UHGV virus genome: UHGV-0848487
Length of the DNA: 40,883 nt
DNA from: a virus
Strand: one strand, 5' to 3'
Shown: positions 3,059 through 40,883 of the stretch, one piece after another
Layout: each line of letters starts with the position of its first letter
Position numbering within the stretch: position 1 is the first letter of the stretch
Position numbers and translations under genes: made by a program
Notes under the pieces: model-generated
The model's input: the letters and a program-made list of their open reading frames with translations, nothing else
What the model was told of the DNA's origin: nothing
Database searches by the model: none

Positions 3059-3074
3059 TTTAATTTCTCCTAGT

Positions 3075-3100
3075 AAAAAAGGGCCGAAGCCCCTTTGTTT
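3075..3100 (-). terminator. intrinsic terminator-like hairpin after major capsid gene
   Basis: Minus strand reads GGGGC-ttcg-GCCC followed by TTTTTT directly after capsid stop codon. Confidence 0.4.
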
Positions 3101-3115
3101 TTACTACTAACCGTG

Positions 3116-5372: not shown

Positions 5373-5648
5373 GCTAGTCCTTATCATTTAAACATAGAAA
5401 CGGCGTAATCTCAGTAAACCAGTTACTTTTTACACAAGCAATAGAGTATGGCCCTTCCGAACGCGTCAGCGTAACTACACTCAGGACTTACGTCCCGCTC
5501 CGTTACCTGCCCGCGCCGCGGTCGCTTGTTCATACTTCACAAGCTCAGGTGGAGCTTAGCACATTTTTGGTGAAAAGTCAACTATTCGAATAGTTTATTC
5601 CAACATTTACAATTGAGTGGAATGACTGGAATAATCACAGGCACTAAA

Positions 5649-12529: not shown

Positions 12530-13033
12530 TCATTTAACTGCCCTCCCGATAGCTTCAGCCTCTCGCCACGGTTTACCGTCGAACAGCGCCAGACGTCCGG
12601 CAACACGTCGACGTAGACCAAGCACAGGCTCGAGTTTACCTGTTTTCGGGTTGCGCTGGTTAATAAACTGACTCATCTTGTGCCGTAAGGTAGGGATGTC
12701 ACCCTGCCGTAGTGCCTTACCGGTTCCGGTATTAGCTGCGATAACACCAGTTCCTGCGTTGAACACCAGGTCAACAACAGCATCAAACTGAGCCTGGGTA
12801 AGTGACGGATGTGCCACCTCGTCGACCGCTTTCACCGCCCACTGCATATCGCGGTTCAGTAACAGCAGCCCCTGGCCCTCAGTAATCTTCTGTCCTTCGT
12901 ACACATCCGGCCCGGTATGGCCCCAGCCGATAGTCCAGTATTTTTCGTTCTTTGTTGCTTTGTATGCAGTTCCGCGGAACCCTTCGAACGCTGCGGTAAA
13001 ATGCGATCCATTATCTGAAATGTTTCGAGACAC
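12530..13033 (-). CDS. endolysin, glycoside hydrolase family 24 (T4/P22-type lysozyme)
   Basis: Motifs FEGFRGTAY ... TIGWGHTG ... LTQAQFDAVVDLVFNAG match phage lysozyme catalytic Glu/Asp/Thr region and helical core. Confidence 0.9.
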   Translation of the reverse strand: MSRNISDNGSHFTAAFEGFRGTAYKATKNEKYWTIGWGHTGPDVYEGQKITEGQGLLLLNRDMQWAVKAVDEVAHPSLTQAQFDAVVDLVFNAGTGVIAANTGTGKALRQGDIPTLRHKMSQFINQRNPKTGKLEPVLGLRRRVAGRLALFDGKPWREAEAIGRAVK

Positions 13034-13283
13034 GCTTGTGCCCTCCGTACGATAGCCACGCCTGACGAATCTGACGCAGCGCGACTAATGTGATTAATGT
13101 CTCGGGCAGCGTTGGCGACATGCTGCCCTGTAACAGGTGGATACTCCCGGCGGCGCAGACGATAGCGGTCAGGATATAGAGCACCCGACCGAATAATCCG
13201 TCATCAACGCTGGGGTGGTATACATTAAACAGCGATGTGCCCCCGATTGCCAGCATACCGCCGAACCAGAATAGCTCATTCAT
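13011..13283 (-). CDS. membrane protein, holin/antiholin-like
   Basis: 90 aa with two hydrophobic segments, between holin and endolysin. Confidence 0.5.
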   Translation of the reverse strand: MNELFWFGGMLAIGGTSLFNVYHPSVDDGLFGRVLYILTAIVCAAGSIHLLQGSMSPTLPETLITLVALRQIRQAWLSYGGHKRVSKHFR

Positions 13284-13584
13284 CCGGGCCTCCTCGACGT
13301 GAGATGTATTCTCCGGCGACGATACCAGAGAGACGGGAATAGATAGGCATCCAGAGAATGGCGATGATGAATCCGAGGCCAGCTATCTCGCGCTCGCCGG
13401 TAATACCGAACCATTGGGCAGCGAGAGGTGCACCAAATACAGCGCAGGTGAAGCCGGTTGCGATAAAGCAGAAGCCGTCGATAGGGCCGGAAATAACGGA
13501 CTTATGTTGTCGTAGTCCGATAACCCCTCCGGCTAGTGCGGCAGCGAGAAGCCACCCCGTCACTGTTTCAGTAAATTTATCCAA
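13276..13584 (-). CDS. holin (putative, multi-TMD)
   Basis: 102 aa with three hydrophobic helices and charged C-terminus; TTG start preceded by GGAGGA; first gene of lysis cassette. Confidence 0.55.
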   Translation of the reverse strand: MDKFTETVTGWLLAAALAGGVIGLRQHKSVISGPIDGFCFIATGFTCAVFGAPLAAQWFGITGEREIAGLGFIIAILWMPIYSRLSGIVAGEYISRRGGPDE

Positions 13585-13589
13585 GATGA

Positions 13590-13629
13590 ATCCTCCAGGT
13601 GCGTATTAAGTATGCAGTAACTGGAGGAT
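13590..13629 (-). promoter_or_regulatory. 9-bp inverted repeat that can sequester the holin Shine-Dalgarno
   Basis: ATCCTCCAG ...22 nt... CTGGAGGAT; 3' arm contains the GGAGGA RBS 6 nt before holin start. Confidence 0.45.
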
Positions 13630-13659
13630 AGCACGGTTAGGAATTATCTTAATAACGGT

Positions 13660-13962
13660 TTATTTATGTCTCCAGATGTATTGTCGTCTCTGCGGCTTCG
13701 TCGGAATATCATTGTATCCCAGCGATTTCCAGTAATTAAATAACCGGTTAGCGATAGCTGCGCGTTCCTTTGTTTTAAACTCACCGAGATTCACGGCCTT
13801 CCCGTTCTGGAACCCACAGGCGCGGACAGCCTTGCGTCTGGCCTGAATCTCTGGGTACAGCGCGTTACGGCGGCGCTTGTATATCTGTGTTTTAGCTCTC
13901 GGTGACAGCGGCGCAAGGCCGCTTCGTTTCAGGATGCCAGGCTCATAGGTCGAGAATCTCAC
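13660..13962 (-). CDS. basic hypothetical protein (possible nucleic-acid binding)
   Basis: 100 aa, Arg/Lys-rich; directly upstream of lysis cassette. Confidence 0.35.
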   Translation of the reverse strand: MRFSTYEPGILKRSGLAPLSPRAKTQIYKRRRNALYPEIQARRKAVRACGFQNGKAVNLGEFKTKERAAIANRLFNYWKSLGYNDIPTKPQRRQYIWRHK

Positions 13963-15212: not shown

Positions 15213-15241
15213 ATAGTAGCCTATTCTATCTTAGTGTGCAA
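15213..15241 (-). promoter_or_regulatory. sigma70-like promoter TTGCAC-N17-TACTAT (minus strand) overlapping GAATAG palindrome
   Basis: Minus strand TTGCACactaagatagaataggcTACTATtcattta; near-identical to promoters at 16507..16535 and 37733..37761. Confidence 0.5.
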
Positions 15242-15502: not shown

Positions 15503-15524
15503 TACGCTGCTGTGTAGCAGCGTA
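15503..15524 (-). terminator. hairpin ACGCTGCT-gtgt-AGCAGCGT downstream of the 15557 gene
   Basis: Perfect 8-bp stem; modest U content after it on minus strand. Confidence 0.35.
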
Positions 15525-16506: not shown

Positions 16507-16535
16507 ATAGTATCCTATTATGTTGGGGCGTGCAA
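16507..16535 (-). promoter_or_regulatory. sigma70-like promoter TTGCAC-N17-TACTAT (minus strand) overlapping GAATAG palindrome
   Basis: Minus strand TTGCACgccccaacataataggaTACTATtcactta, about 25 nt upstream of the 16472 gene. Confidence 0.5.
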
Positions 16536-16802: not shown

Positions 16803-16956
16803 AAGTACCCGAGACTTAAGAATGATGTTTCTAAGTAATTCTGAATTAAGGTCCTTCGATACATTGATTTTACAGCTACATTTTATTTTGTCAATAGGTT
16901 GTGTTTGGCTATTGTAGGTGTTATAGTTGTTTCACTTGATAAAGAGGGCACGTAAA

Positions 16957-19998: not shown

Positions 19999-20027
19999 TT
20001 GATATGTGAATAGTACCATATTAATTA
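19999..20027 (+). promoter_or_regulatory. candidate promoter TTGATA-N17-TAATTA overlapping the divergent XRE promoter (-10 TACTAT on minus strand at 20010..20015)
   Basis: Contains GTGAATAGTA operator-like motif; face-to-face overlapping promoters. Confidence 0.4.
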
Positions 20028-20042: not shown

Positions 20043-20071
20043 TTGACAAGTGAATAGTTCGCTATTATAGT
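20043..20071 (+). promoter_or_regulatory. strong sigma70-like promoter TTGACA-N17-TATAGT
   Basis: Consensus -35, 17-nt spacer containing GTGAATAGTtcgCTATTA palindrome, -10 TATAGT; 30 nt upstream of the 20103 gene. Confidence 0.6.
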
Positions 20072-22436: not shown

Positions 22437-22465
22437 TTGACACCTGAATAGTTAGCTATTATAGT
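22437..22465 (+). promoter_or_regulatory. sigma70-like promoter TTGACA-N17-TATAGT
   Basis: Near-duplicate of promoter at 20043..20071 including TGAATAGTtagCTATTA palindrome. Confidence 0.6.
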
Positions 22466-27689: not shown

Positions 27690-30644
27690 TTATTTATCTT
27701 CTAGTGCTGCCAGCCTCTTCTCGAACTCGCGCATCTTCTTACGCTGATAGGCAATCTCTATGAAGAACATCTGGTCCGCCCTAACCCCCCATCTGCCGCC
27801 GGGAGGGGATACTTGTACAGTCTGGCCATCTTCATCAATATCATACGCAGCTTCAATTGAGTCGTAGCACAAGAAAGCATATTTACAATCGGTAGAATCT
27901 TTCTCCATAAGCCCATGGTTGACCAAGATGTCTCGCACATCTTGGGCTATCACACCGAAGTGTATCCTTGCAGTGTCACCCTTGATTGCTAGGCTTTCAA
28001 GCCACTTAAAAGATATTACATGTATATCCTCCCATGCGGTAAGGAGTTGTCCCTCAATTTCCTCTTTGTTCGTCTTAAGTGTACCATCAGACGTGTTTAT
28101 CGTACCGGTGGCCGCGTACACCGTAGTCCACCTATTACTTGCCGAACCTAAAGACACTCGCGCGTCTAAGTAAGGAAGAAAATTGTTGTATGAGTAGAAG
28201 CCTCCTGACGCATACATAATAGCCCTGTTAGGCGTTGCATGGTTTGCCCCGTACAGTTGCAGCAACGCACCATCGGAACTGGATGCACCATCACCACCGC
28301 TAACTATCAGTCTTTGACCCGATGGGGTTTTAGTGGGGACTGTTTTTGAAATCAGCCCGTAATCACCATCAAACCGTGCACGCACGGCGGACTGTTGTGT
28401 ACCATCGTATTCCAGCCCCGTTACATGCAGGGAGTACACGCTTACATCATTGTCAAACGTTAAAGGTGCTTCTACATGGCGTACACCATCTACCCCCATG
28501 GCGACAGGTATTGTACGGTTAGGAGTTGCTCCGTATTTGAAATCACGTGATACGTACGGGTGGTCTTCAATCTTTATCCGGTAGCTATATAAGTCAGCCG
28601 GATGCCCATCATGTTTGTACCATAACCTCGCACTGTTATCCCCTATGCTCCAGGGAGAGAAGAAGTCTTCCCCACCAAAGATATAGTACAACCAGCCATC
28701 TTTAACACAGACCGAGCCGACGCCGACAGCAGAGTTAACGATATGACCCTGGTATATTTGGTCGGTAATATTAAACCACTGAACATCATCTAAAGATGAA
28801 GGCCAGGACGACACATTAACTTTGCACATAAAGGTCCTCGGATACGAACCTTCATAGCGGCTGTCCTGCTCGCCACCTTCCCACTCACCAAAGGCACGTT
28901 CTGTACCAAAGATATAGAGATAGTCACCTACTTTAGCGAACGGAAGATTGGAGTGATGTACATTGTTCGGAAATCGCAAGTAGCTCCAGTTTTGCCCAGA
29001 ATCGGTGCTCATCGCCAGTGTAGAGCCAGGGGAAGTAGGTAATGTGCCGCGTGTGGTAAGGTATAACACACCACCATAACTTTTCACGCACGGCTCAGAA
29101 GCGTTATCAGCGTATGCCTGAGCGACAGTGCGACGAACGAATACGCCTGGATTGTCATACACGTTACTAAAATACAAGACACCGAGACGCCGAGGGGACA
29201 CATCGCCGTTGTGATAGCCGACAGCGATAGTGTAGTTAACATCATCTATGACCGCAAAACTATGTGTCTCCGTGACACACAAATCAGCGTTAGTGGAGTA
29301 TGCTACCCCAGGCAATTCGGTAATTTCCCACGGGCTGTCCCAGAATCGCGTTGCGAAGTTCCAGGTAACACCCGCATTGTTTATGGTGGAACTCGCCGGG
29401 CTTGAGAGCGTAACAGTGAACGTATTTCGGTTAATTATAGACGAAACCGTCATATTACCCGATACGCCAGTTGCCGATGTATTAGAGAAGTTAACCGCAT
29501 CTCCTGCTTTTAGGCCATGATTTTCTATGACAATGGTAGCAGTAGTGGAGCCAGAACTAATAGTTATTCCGCCGGTTGGGTGTCTAAAATACGGCATTGG
29601 GCGTGACCAAAGTTCTGCCTTCTTCATCCGCATATTAGATAAGTAGCGGGTTTCTATAACTGCATATAATCGGTTGCCACACGTACCCATGCTCATGCAG
29701 TGGTAGTTAACTCTGTCCGTAGAAACACTAGCGTTATAGTCAGCATGGATTGGAGTCAACCACTCAGGCATTGACCAAGTCTGCCCGTCGTCACCAGAGC
29801 GAACCCAAGCTACATGTAAGTTTTGAACGCCATGTCGTTCGCCTGCCATAAACGGGGCGTAAATAACATGGTCGTAGACGAAAGTTTTATCCTGCGTCCA
29901 TGCGTTGTAGAACGGGGTATCCGTCACCTTAGTTAGTGAGCCGTTAAAGAAGCCATCAGCTACATAAGTAAGCGGTTGCCCGGCTACGCGCTCGTAAACG
30001 AATGCAGCATTCTTAAATTTACTAATGTCAGGTAATTGGGAAACTTTATAAGTCAAACCCCTGCCGTCTATAATCCAATTGTTGGGGGAAGCTGCTAATA
30101 CATTAAAAATAGATTGAGTATCATCAGTTACGCCGTCGCCCACGGCGCCCCATGCGCGCGGGTCGTATTCGTCCTTCCATCGCGCCACATGTAAATCTGG
30201 GTACAGAATTGCACCATTTACATCAGATATTTGCTGCCGCAGTATGACCGACCCGACAGGCTGCCACGCCCCATCTGCCACGCCACCGGTGGACTGCGGA
30301 GAAGATGACGCTGGGATAATTTTTGGTAGAGCACCCAACCAATAGTACCAATCCCCGTCACCGCCAGAGGACGACGGCCACAAAACTGCGGTGTTTCGGT
30401 CGTTAGCGGATAGTGTACCGCCTGACGTGAAATCAAAATCTGCCAGTTTAAAACCTGCGTCACGCAACACGGCGGGGAGTGTCTTCTGCGTCTGTCCAGT
30501 AACCTGATTTGTCGCGTAATCAATATCGGCACCACCGGCGACACCGCCGGATTTGCCAGTGATAACCTCGGCCTCGAAAATCTGATGTTTCTTGGCGGTT
30601 TGTAAATCCGCCAGGCTTAAAACGTCACCGCATCCGCTTGACAT
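27690..30644 (-). CDS. tailspike / tail fiber with sialidase-like beta-propeller (candidate endosialidase) and C-terminal intramolecular chaperone domain
   Basis: 984 aa; Asp-box motifs SGDDGQTW and STDSGQNW; C-terminal SDGTLK ... HFGVIAQDV region resembling autoproteolytic chaperone domains of endosialidases/tail fibers. Confidence 0.7.
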   Translation of the reverse strand: MSSGCGDVLSLADLQTAKKHQIFEAEVITGKSGGVAGGADIDYATNQVTGQTQKTLPAVLRDAGFKLADFDFTSGGTLSANDRNTAVLWPSSSGGDGDWYYWLGALPKIIPASSSPQSTGGVADGAWQPVGSVILRQQISDVNGAILYPDLHVARWKDEYDPRAWGAVGDGVTDDTQSIFNVLAASPNNWIIDGRGLTYKVSQLPDISKFKNAAFVYERVAGQPLTYVADGFFNGSLTKVTDTPFYNAWTQDKTFVYDHVIYAPFMAGERHGVQNLHVAWVRSGDDGQTWSMPEWLTPIHADYNASVSTDRVNYHCMSMGTCGNRLYAVIETRYLSNMRMKKAELWSRPMPYFRHPTGGITISSGSTTATIVIENHGLKAGDAVNFSNTSATGVSGNMTVSSIINRNTFTVTLSSPASSTINNAGVTWNFATRFWDSPWEITELPGVAYSTNADLCVTETHSFAVIDDVNYTIAVGYHNGDVSPRRLGVLYFSNVYDNPGVFVRRTVAQAYADNASEPCVKSYGGVLYLTTRGTLPTSPGSTLAMSTDSGQNWSYLRFPNNVHHSNLPFAKVGDYLYIFGTERAFGEWEGGEQDSRYEGSYPRTFMCKVNVSSWPSSLDDVQWFNITDQIYQGHIVNSAVGVGSVCVKDGWLYYIFGGEDFFSPWSIGDNSARLWYKHDGHPADLYSYRIKIEDHPYVSRDFKYGATPNRTIPVAMGVDGVRHVEAPLTFDNDVSVYSLHVTGLEYDGTQQSAVRARFDGDYGLISKTVPTKTPSGQRLIVSGGDGASSSDGALLQLYGANHATPNRAIMYASGGFYSYNNFLPYLDARVSLGSASNRWTTVYAATGTINTSDGTLKTNKEEIEGQLLTAWEDIHVISFKWLESLAIKGDTARIHFGVIAQDVRDILVNHGLMEKDSTDCKYAFLCYDSIEAAYDIDEDGQTVQVSPPGGRWGVRADQMFFIEIAYQRKKMREFEKRLAALEDK

Positions 30645-36850: not shown

Positions 36851-37232
36851 GATTTCTACCTTCAAAGATTGCTTCTAAGCCCATGATAATGTCTATCTCG
36901 AACAGGCTAAGCTGTTTTTGCGTAACATCGAGATAGGCTTTCAGGTCTTGCCACGTAACGGATTCTCTTGCGAACAATACTACAGCGTCCTCGCGCACGT
37001 GTCGCGTAAACTTAATGTCGCAGTACGTCTCGAAGGTGGATATAAAAAGGGGCGGGCATTCTGGCCCACCCCGTCGCGCTGCACGTTTTTTCTTATCGAT
37101 TACACCCATCGCGATAAGCGCCTGTTCGTGTCCGTCGGCTATAGAATCAAACTCTCTGATTTTATGCTTATCCACAAACTCATAGGTGGCGAACCTGTAC
37201 AGCGCGTCTACTTTTCCTGTAATGCTTTGCGC
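36843..37232 (-). CDS. tail assembly chaperone T-like ORF (candidate -1 frameshift extension of G)
   Basis: Frame is open from 37232, overlaps last 8 codons of the G-like gene in the -1 frame; ends 8 nt into the tape measure gene. Confidence 0.35.
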   Translation of the reverse strand, partial: AQSITGKVDALYRFATYEFVDKHKIREFDSIADGHEQALIAMGVIDKKKRAARRGGPECPPLFISTFETYCDIKFTRHVREDAVVLFARESVTWQDLKAYLDVTQKQLSLFEIDIIMGLEAIFEGRNHG

Positions 37233-37732: not shown

Positions 37733-37761
37733 TTGCACACCCCAATATAATAGGGTACTAT
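37733..37761 (+). promoter_or_regulatory. sigma70-like promoter TTGCAC-N17-TACTAT driving plus-strand accessory island
   Basis: TTGCACaccccaatataatagggTACTATtcactta; near-identical to the minus-strand early promoters at 15213..15241 and 16507..16535. Confidence 0.55.
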
Positions 37762-37791
37762 TCACTTACACCAACAATGAAGGGGTTTAAA

Positions 37792-40215: not shown

Positions 40216-40883
40216 TTATGCGTATGTGATACGCTGAATAACAATAGACGACTGGTACTGGTTGCCAGTAGCCTGGCCTTCAATAGACTGAGTGATTGAC
40301 TCAGGTCCTCCAATCTCAGGTGTAGCCGCCGTAAGTTCTGCACGTTTCAAACTGAAAGACATAGCCCCGTTTACCCCAGCCAGAATAGAGTTAATCTCCA
40401 CCTGCTGCTCGTTGATAAACTTCTGAATCATCGCCATGTCGTACAGCTTACCGGAGATGGAGAAGGTGTTAGCTGCTCGGCTACGCTCCACAAACGCTAC
40501 GTTAGTGTTGCCGAGTTCGAACTGTGCGGACGCGCTGTTGTCGTTGGTGATGGTCAGGCTGTCGCAACGCAACGGCGTAGAACCGTCGAACACAGAAACA
40601 TCGACCGAGGAGAATGGCTCATCACCAAAAGTAACAGATGAGAAGTTGGAACCGGTCGGCGGCGTAGTGAGAATCTCCTGTCTGCGACCGATGAATGGGA
40701 AGCTGCCAGTTACCATCGCGTTAACAGCCTGTTCGATGGTAAAACCAGAAACTTCCACGCCTTTGGTTAACGTGTACGCGTCAGTACCGCCGCACTGGCC
40801 TTTGTACCAGGTAAGGATAGAGAACGTCTTACACGTGTTACCGGTTTCCAGCGTGTCGCCGGTTTTAGCCTTACTAGTTTTTG
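40216..40883 (-). CDS. major tail protein, C-terminal part (partial; ORF enters from window end)
   Basis: Minus-strand frame open from 40881 to stop at 40216 (ORF track gives 40216..40758 from an internal GTG); upstream codons translate without stop to the window edge. Confidence 0.5.
   Translation of the reverse strand, partial: KTSKAKTGDTLETGNTCKTFSILTWYKGQCGGTDAYTLTKGVEVSGFTIEQAVNAMVTGSFPFIGRRQEILTTPPTGSNFSSVTFGDEPFSSVDVSVFDGSTPLRCDSLTITNDNSASAQFELGNTNVAFVERSRAANTFSISGKLYDMAMIQKFINEQQVEINSILAGVNGAMSFSLKRAELTAATPEIGGPESITQSIEGQATGNQYQSSIVIQRITYA

Follow-up and report, generated by a model that had tools for sequence, protein, structure and literature searches.

The window, a stretch of 40,883 nucleotides (UHGV virus genome UHGV-0848487), is an essentially complete ~41 kb genome of a Kagunavirus-type (Guernseyvirinae) E. 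coli siphophage. In GenBank, 1.3 kb of sequence surrounding the hairpin described below matched 123 phage records at 85–93% identity, nearly all of them Escherichia phages and Kagunavirus; a search of genome contigs for relatives found none, and thus gave no prophage context. The genes around the hairpin are carried on the minus strand (Table 1). Two holin genes are accompanied by an endolysin gene and followed downstream, on the same strand, by small ORFs and then by terminase, portal and head genes. Relatives of holin 1 are annotated as class II holin-like. Its TTG is very likely the true start codon, since the Met it encodes lines up with the first residue of Dhillonvirus homologues that start with ATG (MDKF.. 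vs MDKL..), and in phage Golestan the same holin gene is annotated with a TTG start (PMC7203180 supplement). The ATG of holin 2 overlaps the stop codon of holin 1 and is preceded at 5 nt by its own Shine-Dalgarno sequence (SD), GAGGAGG, while the GTG of the endolysin is preceded at 7 nt by GGAGGG. As both genes have a strong SD of their own, the hairpin acts directly on holin 1 only. The initial annotation mentioned neither the minus-strand orientation nor the SDs of holin 2 and the endolysin.

Table 1 Features of the lysis genes, the holin leader and the upstream promoter-like sites in the window. Diversity is nucleotide diversity among 59 distinct Kagunavirus sequences.
Feature	Position	Strand	Diversity	Basis and remarks
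Endolysin (phage lysozyme)	12530..13033	(-)		PF00959, E 1.2e-25
Holin 2 gene	13011..13283	(-)		90 aa; phrog_2508 holin
Holin 1 gene	13276..13584	(-)		102 aa, TTG start; PHROG phrog_2359 holin, E 3.5e-29
TTG start codon, holin 1	13582..13584	(-)		6 nt after GGAGGA; N-terminal alignment with ATG-started homologues
Hairpin 3' arm	13590..13598	(-)	0.004	CUGGAGGAU; holds SD GGAGGA (13596-13591)
22-nt loop	13599..13620	(-)	0.021	UUACUGCAUACUUAAUACGCAC; weak internal 3-bp helix
Hairpin 5' arm	13621..13629	(-)	0.004	AUCCUCCAG; anti-SD-like; repeat finder
Extended -10-like motif TGcTATCCT	13625..13633	(-)		Putative promoter; overlaps base of 5' arm
Sigma70-type promoter-like site	15213..15241	(-)		TTGCAC-17-TACTAT, predicted; would send transcripts into holin leader
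Second sigma70-type promoter-like site	16507..16535	(-)		TTGCAC-17-TACTAT, predicted

The ORFs upstream of the holin gave no match in Pfam or NCBIfam. A Q-like regulator encoded in one of them was considered and found unsupported, given the lack of such matches and the non-homology of the upstream ORFs of Kagunavirus and Dhillonvirus. A sharp mosaic junction at ~13655–13662 on the minus strand (positions ~1425–1445 in loci L001–L040) forms the 5' edge of the conserved holin leader. The upstream gene in Kagunavirus is one of two unrelated genes, either a phrog_9632 ORF, as in the window, or a gene for an HslV-like peptidase, the stop codon of which falls within the conserved leader block; the ~75 nt that follow the junction are nearly invariant among Kagunavirus genomes.

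In the holin leader, a repeat finder detected a perfect inverted repeat of 9 nt, the arms of which lie 22 nt apart. In the order of the mRNA, the 5' arm AUCCUCCAG is followed by the 22-nt loop, the 3' arm CUGGAGGAU, the pentamer UCAUC and the start codon UUG. The SD GGAGGA is contained in the 3' arm and separated from the start codon by 6 nt (UUCAUC, 13590-13585). Both the inverted repeat with its loop and the placement of the SD relative to the TTG had been described in the initial annotation, and are borne out on the minus-strand sequence. A 24-codon leader ORF starting at GTG 13634 was rejected as a candidate, as it has no SD and its Dhillonvirus equivalent stops after two codons.

Perfect 9-bp inverted repeats with loops of 3–30 nt occur six times in the window, compared with 4.6 ± 2.7 in dinucleotide shuffles, so that the inverted repeat by itself is weak evidence. 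The five other short-loop repeats of this kind lie at 15503-15524, 27923-27945, 3071-3106, 36893-36936 and 40710-40742. What places the holin hairpin above chance is the stability of its fold, its rank for SD masking, and its conservation with covariation across lineages. The 54-nt leader folds with an energy of -16.1 kcal/mol, compared with -7.2 ± 2.0 kcal/mol for shuffled sequences (z -4.4, 0/200), and the hairpin alone accounts for -14.2 kcal/mol. Folding of the leader RNA, proposed as a check in the initial annotation, places the SD within a stable hairpin, with a probability of being unpaired of 0.001, and of 0.001–0.002 at equilibrium in thermodynamic folding of the window leader. Ranked among 65 window genes, taken from crude gene calls, holin 1 has the most strongly masked SD of all (mean P(unpaired) 0.10 vs a median of 0.48). 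A search against Rfam 15 found no family match, with only two sub-threshold chance hits in 13300-13900.

Conservation within Kagunavirus was assessed using 75 Kagunavirus-type loci from IMG/VR and metagenomes, comprising 59 distinct sequences. Nucleotide diversity in the two arms and the loop (Table 1) compares with 0.104 in the rest of the leader and 0.364 at the fourfold-degenerate sites of the adjacent holin gene, making the arms ~90-fold less variable than the fourfold-degenerate sites. Just two arm variants occur in the 75 loci, an A to G change in L039 that gives a G.U pair, and a U to C change in L100 that gives an A.C mismatch. Elsewhere, the stem of L025 is lengthened by a U to G change that turns a mismatch into a pair. 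In L029 (positions 1421-1500; IMGVR_UViG_2706796610_000001), six substitutions are found in the loop, five of which make new pairs, converting the 9-bp stem into a nearly continuous 17-bp hairpin of -21.1 kcal/mol. The 22-nt loop is itself ~17-fold less variable than fourfold sites within Kagunavirus, yet other lineages have loops of different length and unrelated sequence; none of the explanations considered accounts for its strong conservation within Kagunavirus. From these sequences, the contributions of pairing and of a putative promoter function to the conservation of the 5' arm cannot be separated.

Five further lineages were defined by holin homologues at 33–68% identity (Table 2). A hairpin is present in all five, with its 3' arm ending 5–8 nt before the holin start and containing SD-like purines (GGAGGA, GGGGGA, GGGA, GGGG or GGGGA). 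Stem sequences, loop sequences and loop lengths (3–13 nt) all differ among these lineages, and the leaders of all lineages fold far better than shuffled sequences, with z scores of -2.8 to -6.7. In an alignment anchored on the stem base, the nine lower-stem pairs are standard pairs in 95.8% of cells across lineages, and two-sided changes are present at 6/9 pairs. The covariation score of 0.643 exceeds that of shuffles (0.258 ± 0.058, 0/500), and pairing falls to ~52–54% when the partner is slid by one column. This alignment was anchored on the stems by hand, which favours the structure, and an arm-swap test was used as a register-free control: each 5' arm pairs best with a 3' arm of its own lineage, with a mean energy of -17.3 kcal/mol for native combinations and -8.8 kcal/mol for cross-lineage combinations. 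Alignment of 12 leaders by sequence only, followed by RNAalifold analysis, gave no consensus structure, because MAFFT placed the stems of different lineages out of register.

Table 2 Holin identity, -10-like or promoter-like motif and terminator discriminant in Kagunavirus, the five further lineages and locus L063. The stem/tail discriminant d follows the formula of d'Aubenton-Carafa et al. 1990, and its values are approximate.
Lineage or locus	Holin identity	Motif	d
Kagunavirus (including the window)		TGcTATCCT or TGgTATCCT	-55 (window)
L062, uncultured phage	68%	TGgTATCCT	-18
Dhillonvirus (HK578, Gluttony, SO-1, many metagenomic loci)	~47%	TGaTATAGT	+19 (HK578)
L058/L066	45%	TGaTATAGT (L066)	+14 (L066)
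L059	41%	TGtTAATAT, TTGGAC 17 nt upstream	+21
KW1E_UTAR	33–40%, to Kagunavirus and Dhillonvirus holins	TTGACC-17-TACTAT	
L063		TGaTATAAT, perfect extended -10 at the cost of one stem pair; consensus TGATATAAT	

G.U pairs are frequent in these stems, with four in L062, one in L039 and one in Dhillonvirus. Such pairs are mismatches in duplex DNA and on the antisense strand, indicating that selection acts on an RNA hairpin, formed by holin-sense transcripts that include the 5' arm; on account of the same pairs, a palindrome or operator at the DNA level was rejected. The SD lies within a helix of its own mRNA leader, the stability of the helix exceeds that expected from composition, and compensatory changes have been kept in evolution. 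The hairpin is thus a real RNA structure of the sense strand, kept by selection, with the holin SD buried in it. The arrangement is absent in the distant holin homologues of Pectobacterium phage Wc4-1 (Ounavirinae) and Pseudomonas phage Amjad_SA. In the latter (L121, 1076-1155), a large G+C-rich hairpin with TGcTACCAT precedes the distant holin homologue; the SD GAGAGAGA is located outside the structure, and the arrangement is therefore different.

Several of the homologous hairpins have the character of intrinsic terminators. The Dhillonvirus element reads AGUCCCAGUGAG-CUAAAA-CUUACUGGGACU-UUUUUU-AUG, and a consensus scan called the HK578 hairpin (12 pairs, 6-nt loop, T-run) and the KW1E_UTAR hairpin (8 pairs, 7-nt loop, U8) terminator-like. 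The combination of a G+C-rich stem, a short loop and a direct U-run is found in HK578, KW1E, L059 and L066, and the terminator-like hairpins of Dhillonvirus, L059, L066 and KW1E_UTAR adjoin the start codon. The hairpins of these relatives have folding energies of -19 to -24 kcal/mol, and their SDs are weak. The window hairpin lacks the short loop and direct U-run of an intrinsic terminator, having a 22-nt loop and an interrupted U tract with the tail UUCAUCUU (also given as UCAUCUUG), and received no call in the consensus scan. In the annotation of Golestan, a close relative, ARNold predicts no terminator and no promoter is predicted at the holin leader (PMC7203180 supplement). All 75 Kagunavirus loci analysed carry the two U-to-C changes in the tail, while the stem stays perfect. 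From its sequence, the window hairpin looks like a terminator-type hairpin that has lost its terminator features while the pairing over the SD has been kept, even perfected; we read it as a former terminator because the stems of Kagunavirus and Dhillonvirus are visibly related, having CCAGU.A. /.ACUGG in common.

Every lineage has a -10-like element that overlaps the base of the 5' arm or lies directly next to it (Table 2). The pattern TGnTAnnnT is kept in Kagunavirus, L062, L059, Dhillonvirus and L066, with variation at the other bases, and near-consensus equivalents are found in Dhillonvirus (TGATATAGT / TGATATAAT). In KW1E, the promoter called by the scan tool ends one base before the hairpin. 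Lineages differ by up to 3 nt in where the hexamer stands with respect to the stem, indicating that the -10-like motif is not simply a part of the stem. Promoter consensus sequences are thus present in KW1E and Dhillonvirus; for the window phage, promoter activity is putative, as the hexamer TATCCT is weak and has no good -35, and the loose motif TGNTANNNT occurs in the window genome at chance frequency (31 and 36 vs ~39 expected per strand). The window hexamer presumably resembles the extended -10 of E. coli galP1. Transcription beginning ~7 nt 3' of the hexamer would start within the 5' arm or immediately beyond it (~13618 in the window, where loop bases would be the first to be transcribed if the embedded promoter is real). 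In modelled transcripts truncated accordingly, SD accessibility rises from 0.002 to 0.18 in Kagunavirus and from 0.000 to 0.68 in HK578, so that the SD of the modelled Kagunavirus transcript is still just 18% unpaired. Another promoter-like sequence, GAGACA-18-GATAAT at 13672-13643, was rejected, as its -35 lies inside the non-conserved upstream gene and its GATAAT is GATACC in L062.

Further upstream, the two predicted sigma70-type sites (Table 1) face the holin leader, and no minus-strand terminator-like site was detected between 17407 and 9900; transcripts carrying both arms of the hairpin are therefore expected in the holin leader, although such read-through RNAs are predicted from the sequence. 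The 17-mer TAATAGnnTACTATTCA occurs 10 times in the window, compared with 0.8 expected, and corresponds to a repeated motif reported as a PHIRE 'phage promoter' in Kagunavirus (PMC7203180 supplement). On inspection, this 17-mer is the conserved spacer plus -10 of predicted sigma70-type promoters of the form TTGCAC-17-TACTAT, and the conservation and partly palindromic nature of the spacer suggest an operator for a phage regulator. Further copies are located at 20007-20023, 20051-20067, 22445-22461 (-) and 37748-37764 (+), with weaker copies at 5571, 7199 and 12233. The leader sequence TATTA(A/G)GATAATTCC was considered as an additional copy and rejected, the left half being alike and the right half mismatched; a search with this leader sequence allowing up to 3 mismatches found no other copy. 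A divergent promoter-like region at 16867-16927 divides the minus-strand small ORFs from the plus-strand replication genes; its minus strand carries TTGACA-16-TAAAAT (11/12), and its plus strand an extended -10 TGTTATAGT. A terminator-like hairpin is present at 17433-17407 on the minus strand.

These features are consistent with a regulatory arrangement in which the translation of holin 1 would depend on the origin of the transcript. RNA from the upstream promoters would carry both arms, and the strong SD GGAGGA would be locked in the stem. Folding shows on thermodynamic grounds that the SD is masked on read-through RNA, and the masked SD together with the weak UUG start would be expected to result in poor translation of holin 1. 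RNA polymerase starting at the embedded promoter would produce transcripts that lack the 5' arm and expose the SD. Holin synthesis would thereby be set by a dedicated promoter and insulated from read-through transcription, with the insulation provided by termination and masking in the relatives, and by SD masking and the UUG start in the window phage. The element may descend from, or share ancestry with, a compact terminator/promoter/RBS unit of the sister lineages, the terminator features of which would have decayed in Kagunavirus while the stem and the extended -10-like TGcTATCCT persisted. We consider it an even call that the hairpin keeps holin 1 silent at the level of translation on read-through transcripts and that RNA from the embedded promoter is translatable, as in the design of T4 gene e. 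A broader reading, on which we lean slightly to the doubtful side, is that terminator hairpin, host-type promoter on the 5' arm and holin SD in the 3' arm overlap in a three-in-one unit of ~50 nt preceding the lysis cassette of several enterobacterial siphophage genera, so that the holin would be made only from its own promoter in Kagunavirus, Dhillonvirus, KW1E-like phages and uncultured relatives; Kagunavirus would then represent a conversion from termination to purely translational insulation, and a switch like that of T4 gene e would have arisen independently in phages that use sigma70 only.

The initial annotation had proposed that the hairpin sequesters the holin SD and that its melting times lysis. 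Sequestration is supported by the low probability that the SD is unpaired and by the selection on the structure; melting as a lysis timer is not supported. The homologues score as terminators and a -10-like element is present at the 5' arm in every lineage, which argues against a melting-dependent clock: as transcripts started at the -10-like element would lack the 5' arm and the homologues are terminator-like, the hairpin is better read as an insulator against read-through. The main rival explanation, which is essentially the model of the initial annotation, is a pure throttle, in which all holin mRNA comes from upstream and contains the hairpin, no internal promoter exists, and the hairpin and UUG start together impose a low, constant rate of synthesis that sets the lysis time. 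SD masking and stem conservation speak for such a throttle, which is further favoured by the weak -10-like hexamer without a -35 in the window lineage, by the chance frequency of the motif, and by the upstream promoter-like sites with no intervening terminator. In phage lambda, moreover, holin SD strength and translation rate set the lysis time (bioRxiv 10.1101/2025.05.14.654169). The throttle does not account for the retention by five lineages of TGnTAnnnT where the 5' arm begins to pair, nor for the full consensus promoter in KW1E and L063. In the relatives, with their more stable, terminator-like hairpins and weak SDs, holin would hardly be made from hairpin-containing RNA. We regard the throttle as rather unlikely, while giving it more weight than any of the other alternatives.

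It is improbable that the main job of the window hairpin is still to stop or reduce transcription into the lysis cassette, with the SD overlap being incidental to a compact genome. Intrinsic terminators are called, or indicated by score, at the homologous hairpins of HK578, L059, L066 and KW1E, and the window tail keeps some U; the long loop, the interrupted U tract, the lack of a call by the scan tool and by ARNold in Golestan, the discriminant of -55 vs +14 to +21 in relatives (approximate values), and the fixation of the two tail changes beside a perfect stem all argue otherwise. More improbable again is a role in mRNA stability or processing, in which the hairpin would shield a processed lysis mRNA at its 5' end against RNase E or exonucleases, or would be a nuclease or protein site, with translation not being the target. 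AU-rich sequence does lie just 5' of the stable hairpin, and the loop is unexpectedly conserved for a plain masking hairpin, which would not need it. Against such a role, the loops of other lineages are wholly different in length and sequence, the features shared between lineages are only the pairing, the SD in the 3' arm and the distance to the start codon, typical RNase III sites have stems longer than 9 bp, and no Rfam family matches. The count of perfect 9-bp inverted repeats, equal to the shuffle expectation, would suit a chance repeat or a DNA-level palindrome serving as a protein operator, with no RNA role. This is scarcely credible in view of the position-specific conservation and covariation across six lineages, the G.U pairs, which would become C.A mismatches in a DNA duplex or in RNA from the opposite strand, and the folding z scores in all lineages.

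If the insulator reading is correct, the strategy of T4 gene e would be more widespread than known, and able to evolve from a terminator. Holin supply sets the lysis time, a key parameter for fitness and phage therapy, and Kagunavirus and Dhillonvirus are common therapy candidates. The hairpin may itself influence lysis time; a timing benefit of the embedded promoter is conjectural, as a sigma70-type promoter gives no obvious early/late switch. An element that chooses the transcripts from which holin is made would explain how the lysis genes and small upstream genes can share one unit without premature lysis, and mutations in the arms or the -10 would offer a simple handle for the engineering of lysis time. 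Were the simple throttle alone true, the element would be an RBS hairpin of an ordinary kind, albeit a well-conserved one.

Phage lysis genes with RBS-masking hairpins are already known, and the Kagunavirus hairpin is a new, well-conserved case; the holin-leader element is described in none of the papers retrieved. What would be new, if confirmed, is the possible overlap of terminator, promoter and RBS, turned in Kagunavirus into a device that is purely translational. The window hairpin shares with the predicted intrinsic terminators of HK578, SO-1, Gluttony and KW1E_UTAR its position relative to the holin start, a related stem and a U-rich spacer, and differs from them in its 22-nt loop, its tail and its failure to score as a terminator. 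Like the sdi stem-loop of lambda S, which tunes lysis timing, it forms in RNA where a holin gene begins and takes in the ribosome-binding region. The lambda structure, however, splits initiation between two close starts (S107 antiholin and S105 holin), whereas the window holin has one start: holin 1 (MDKFTETV) has no Met-Lys-Met motif and no second start before Met79, as is the case in all lineages, and a dual-start mechanism is thereby excluded. The arrangement also recalls lambda pR'-tR' and Q, with a putative promoter and a hairpin forming a unit directly before the holin and endolysin genes, followed on the same strand by terminase and head genes. No Q-like gene was identified in the window, and conservation between lineages does not extend to the upstream ORFs. 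In lambda, transcription starts before tR', and Q overrides this terminator, whereas the predicted start in the window is inside the hairpin, so that no antiterminator would be needed.

The closest parallel is found in T4 gene e, which encodes lysozyme, and in soc, 49 and I-TevI, where the SD is sequestered in a hairpin on long upstream transcripts (PMC311593; PMC3014915). In gene e, a promoter is located on the DNA of the 5' strand of the hairpin, and its transcripts, which lack the inhibitory arm, are translated (McPheeters et al. 1986, PMC311593; PMC3014915). The window element resembles gene e in comprising a lysis gene with its SD in a hairpin, and would also share the promoter on the DNA of the 5' strand if the putative promoter is active. 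The two genes have no sequence homology, gene e encoding an endolysin and the window gene a holin, and, unlike that of gene e, the hairpins of the sister lineages also score as intrinsic terminators. The T4 promoters are phage-specific, gp55-dependent late promoters (TATAAATA) that provide a clear temporal switch, whereas the candidate promoter in the window is of the host sigma70 type with an extended -10.
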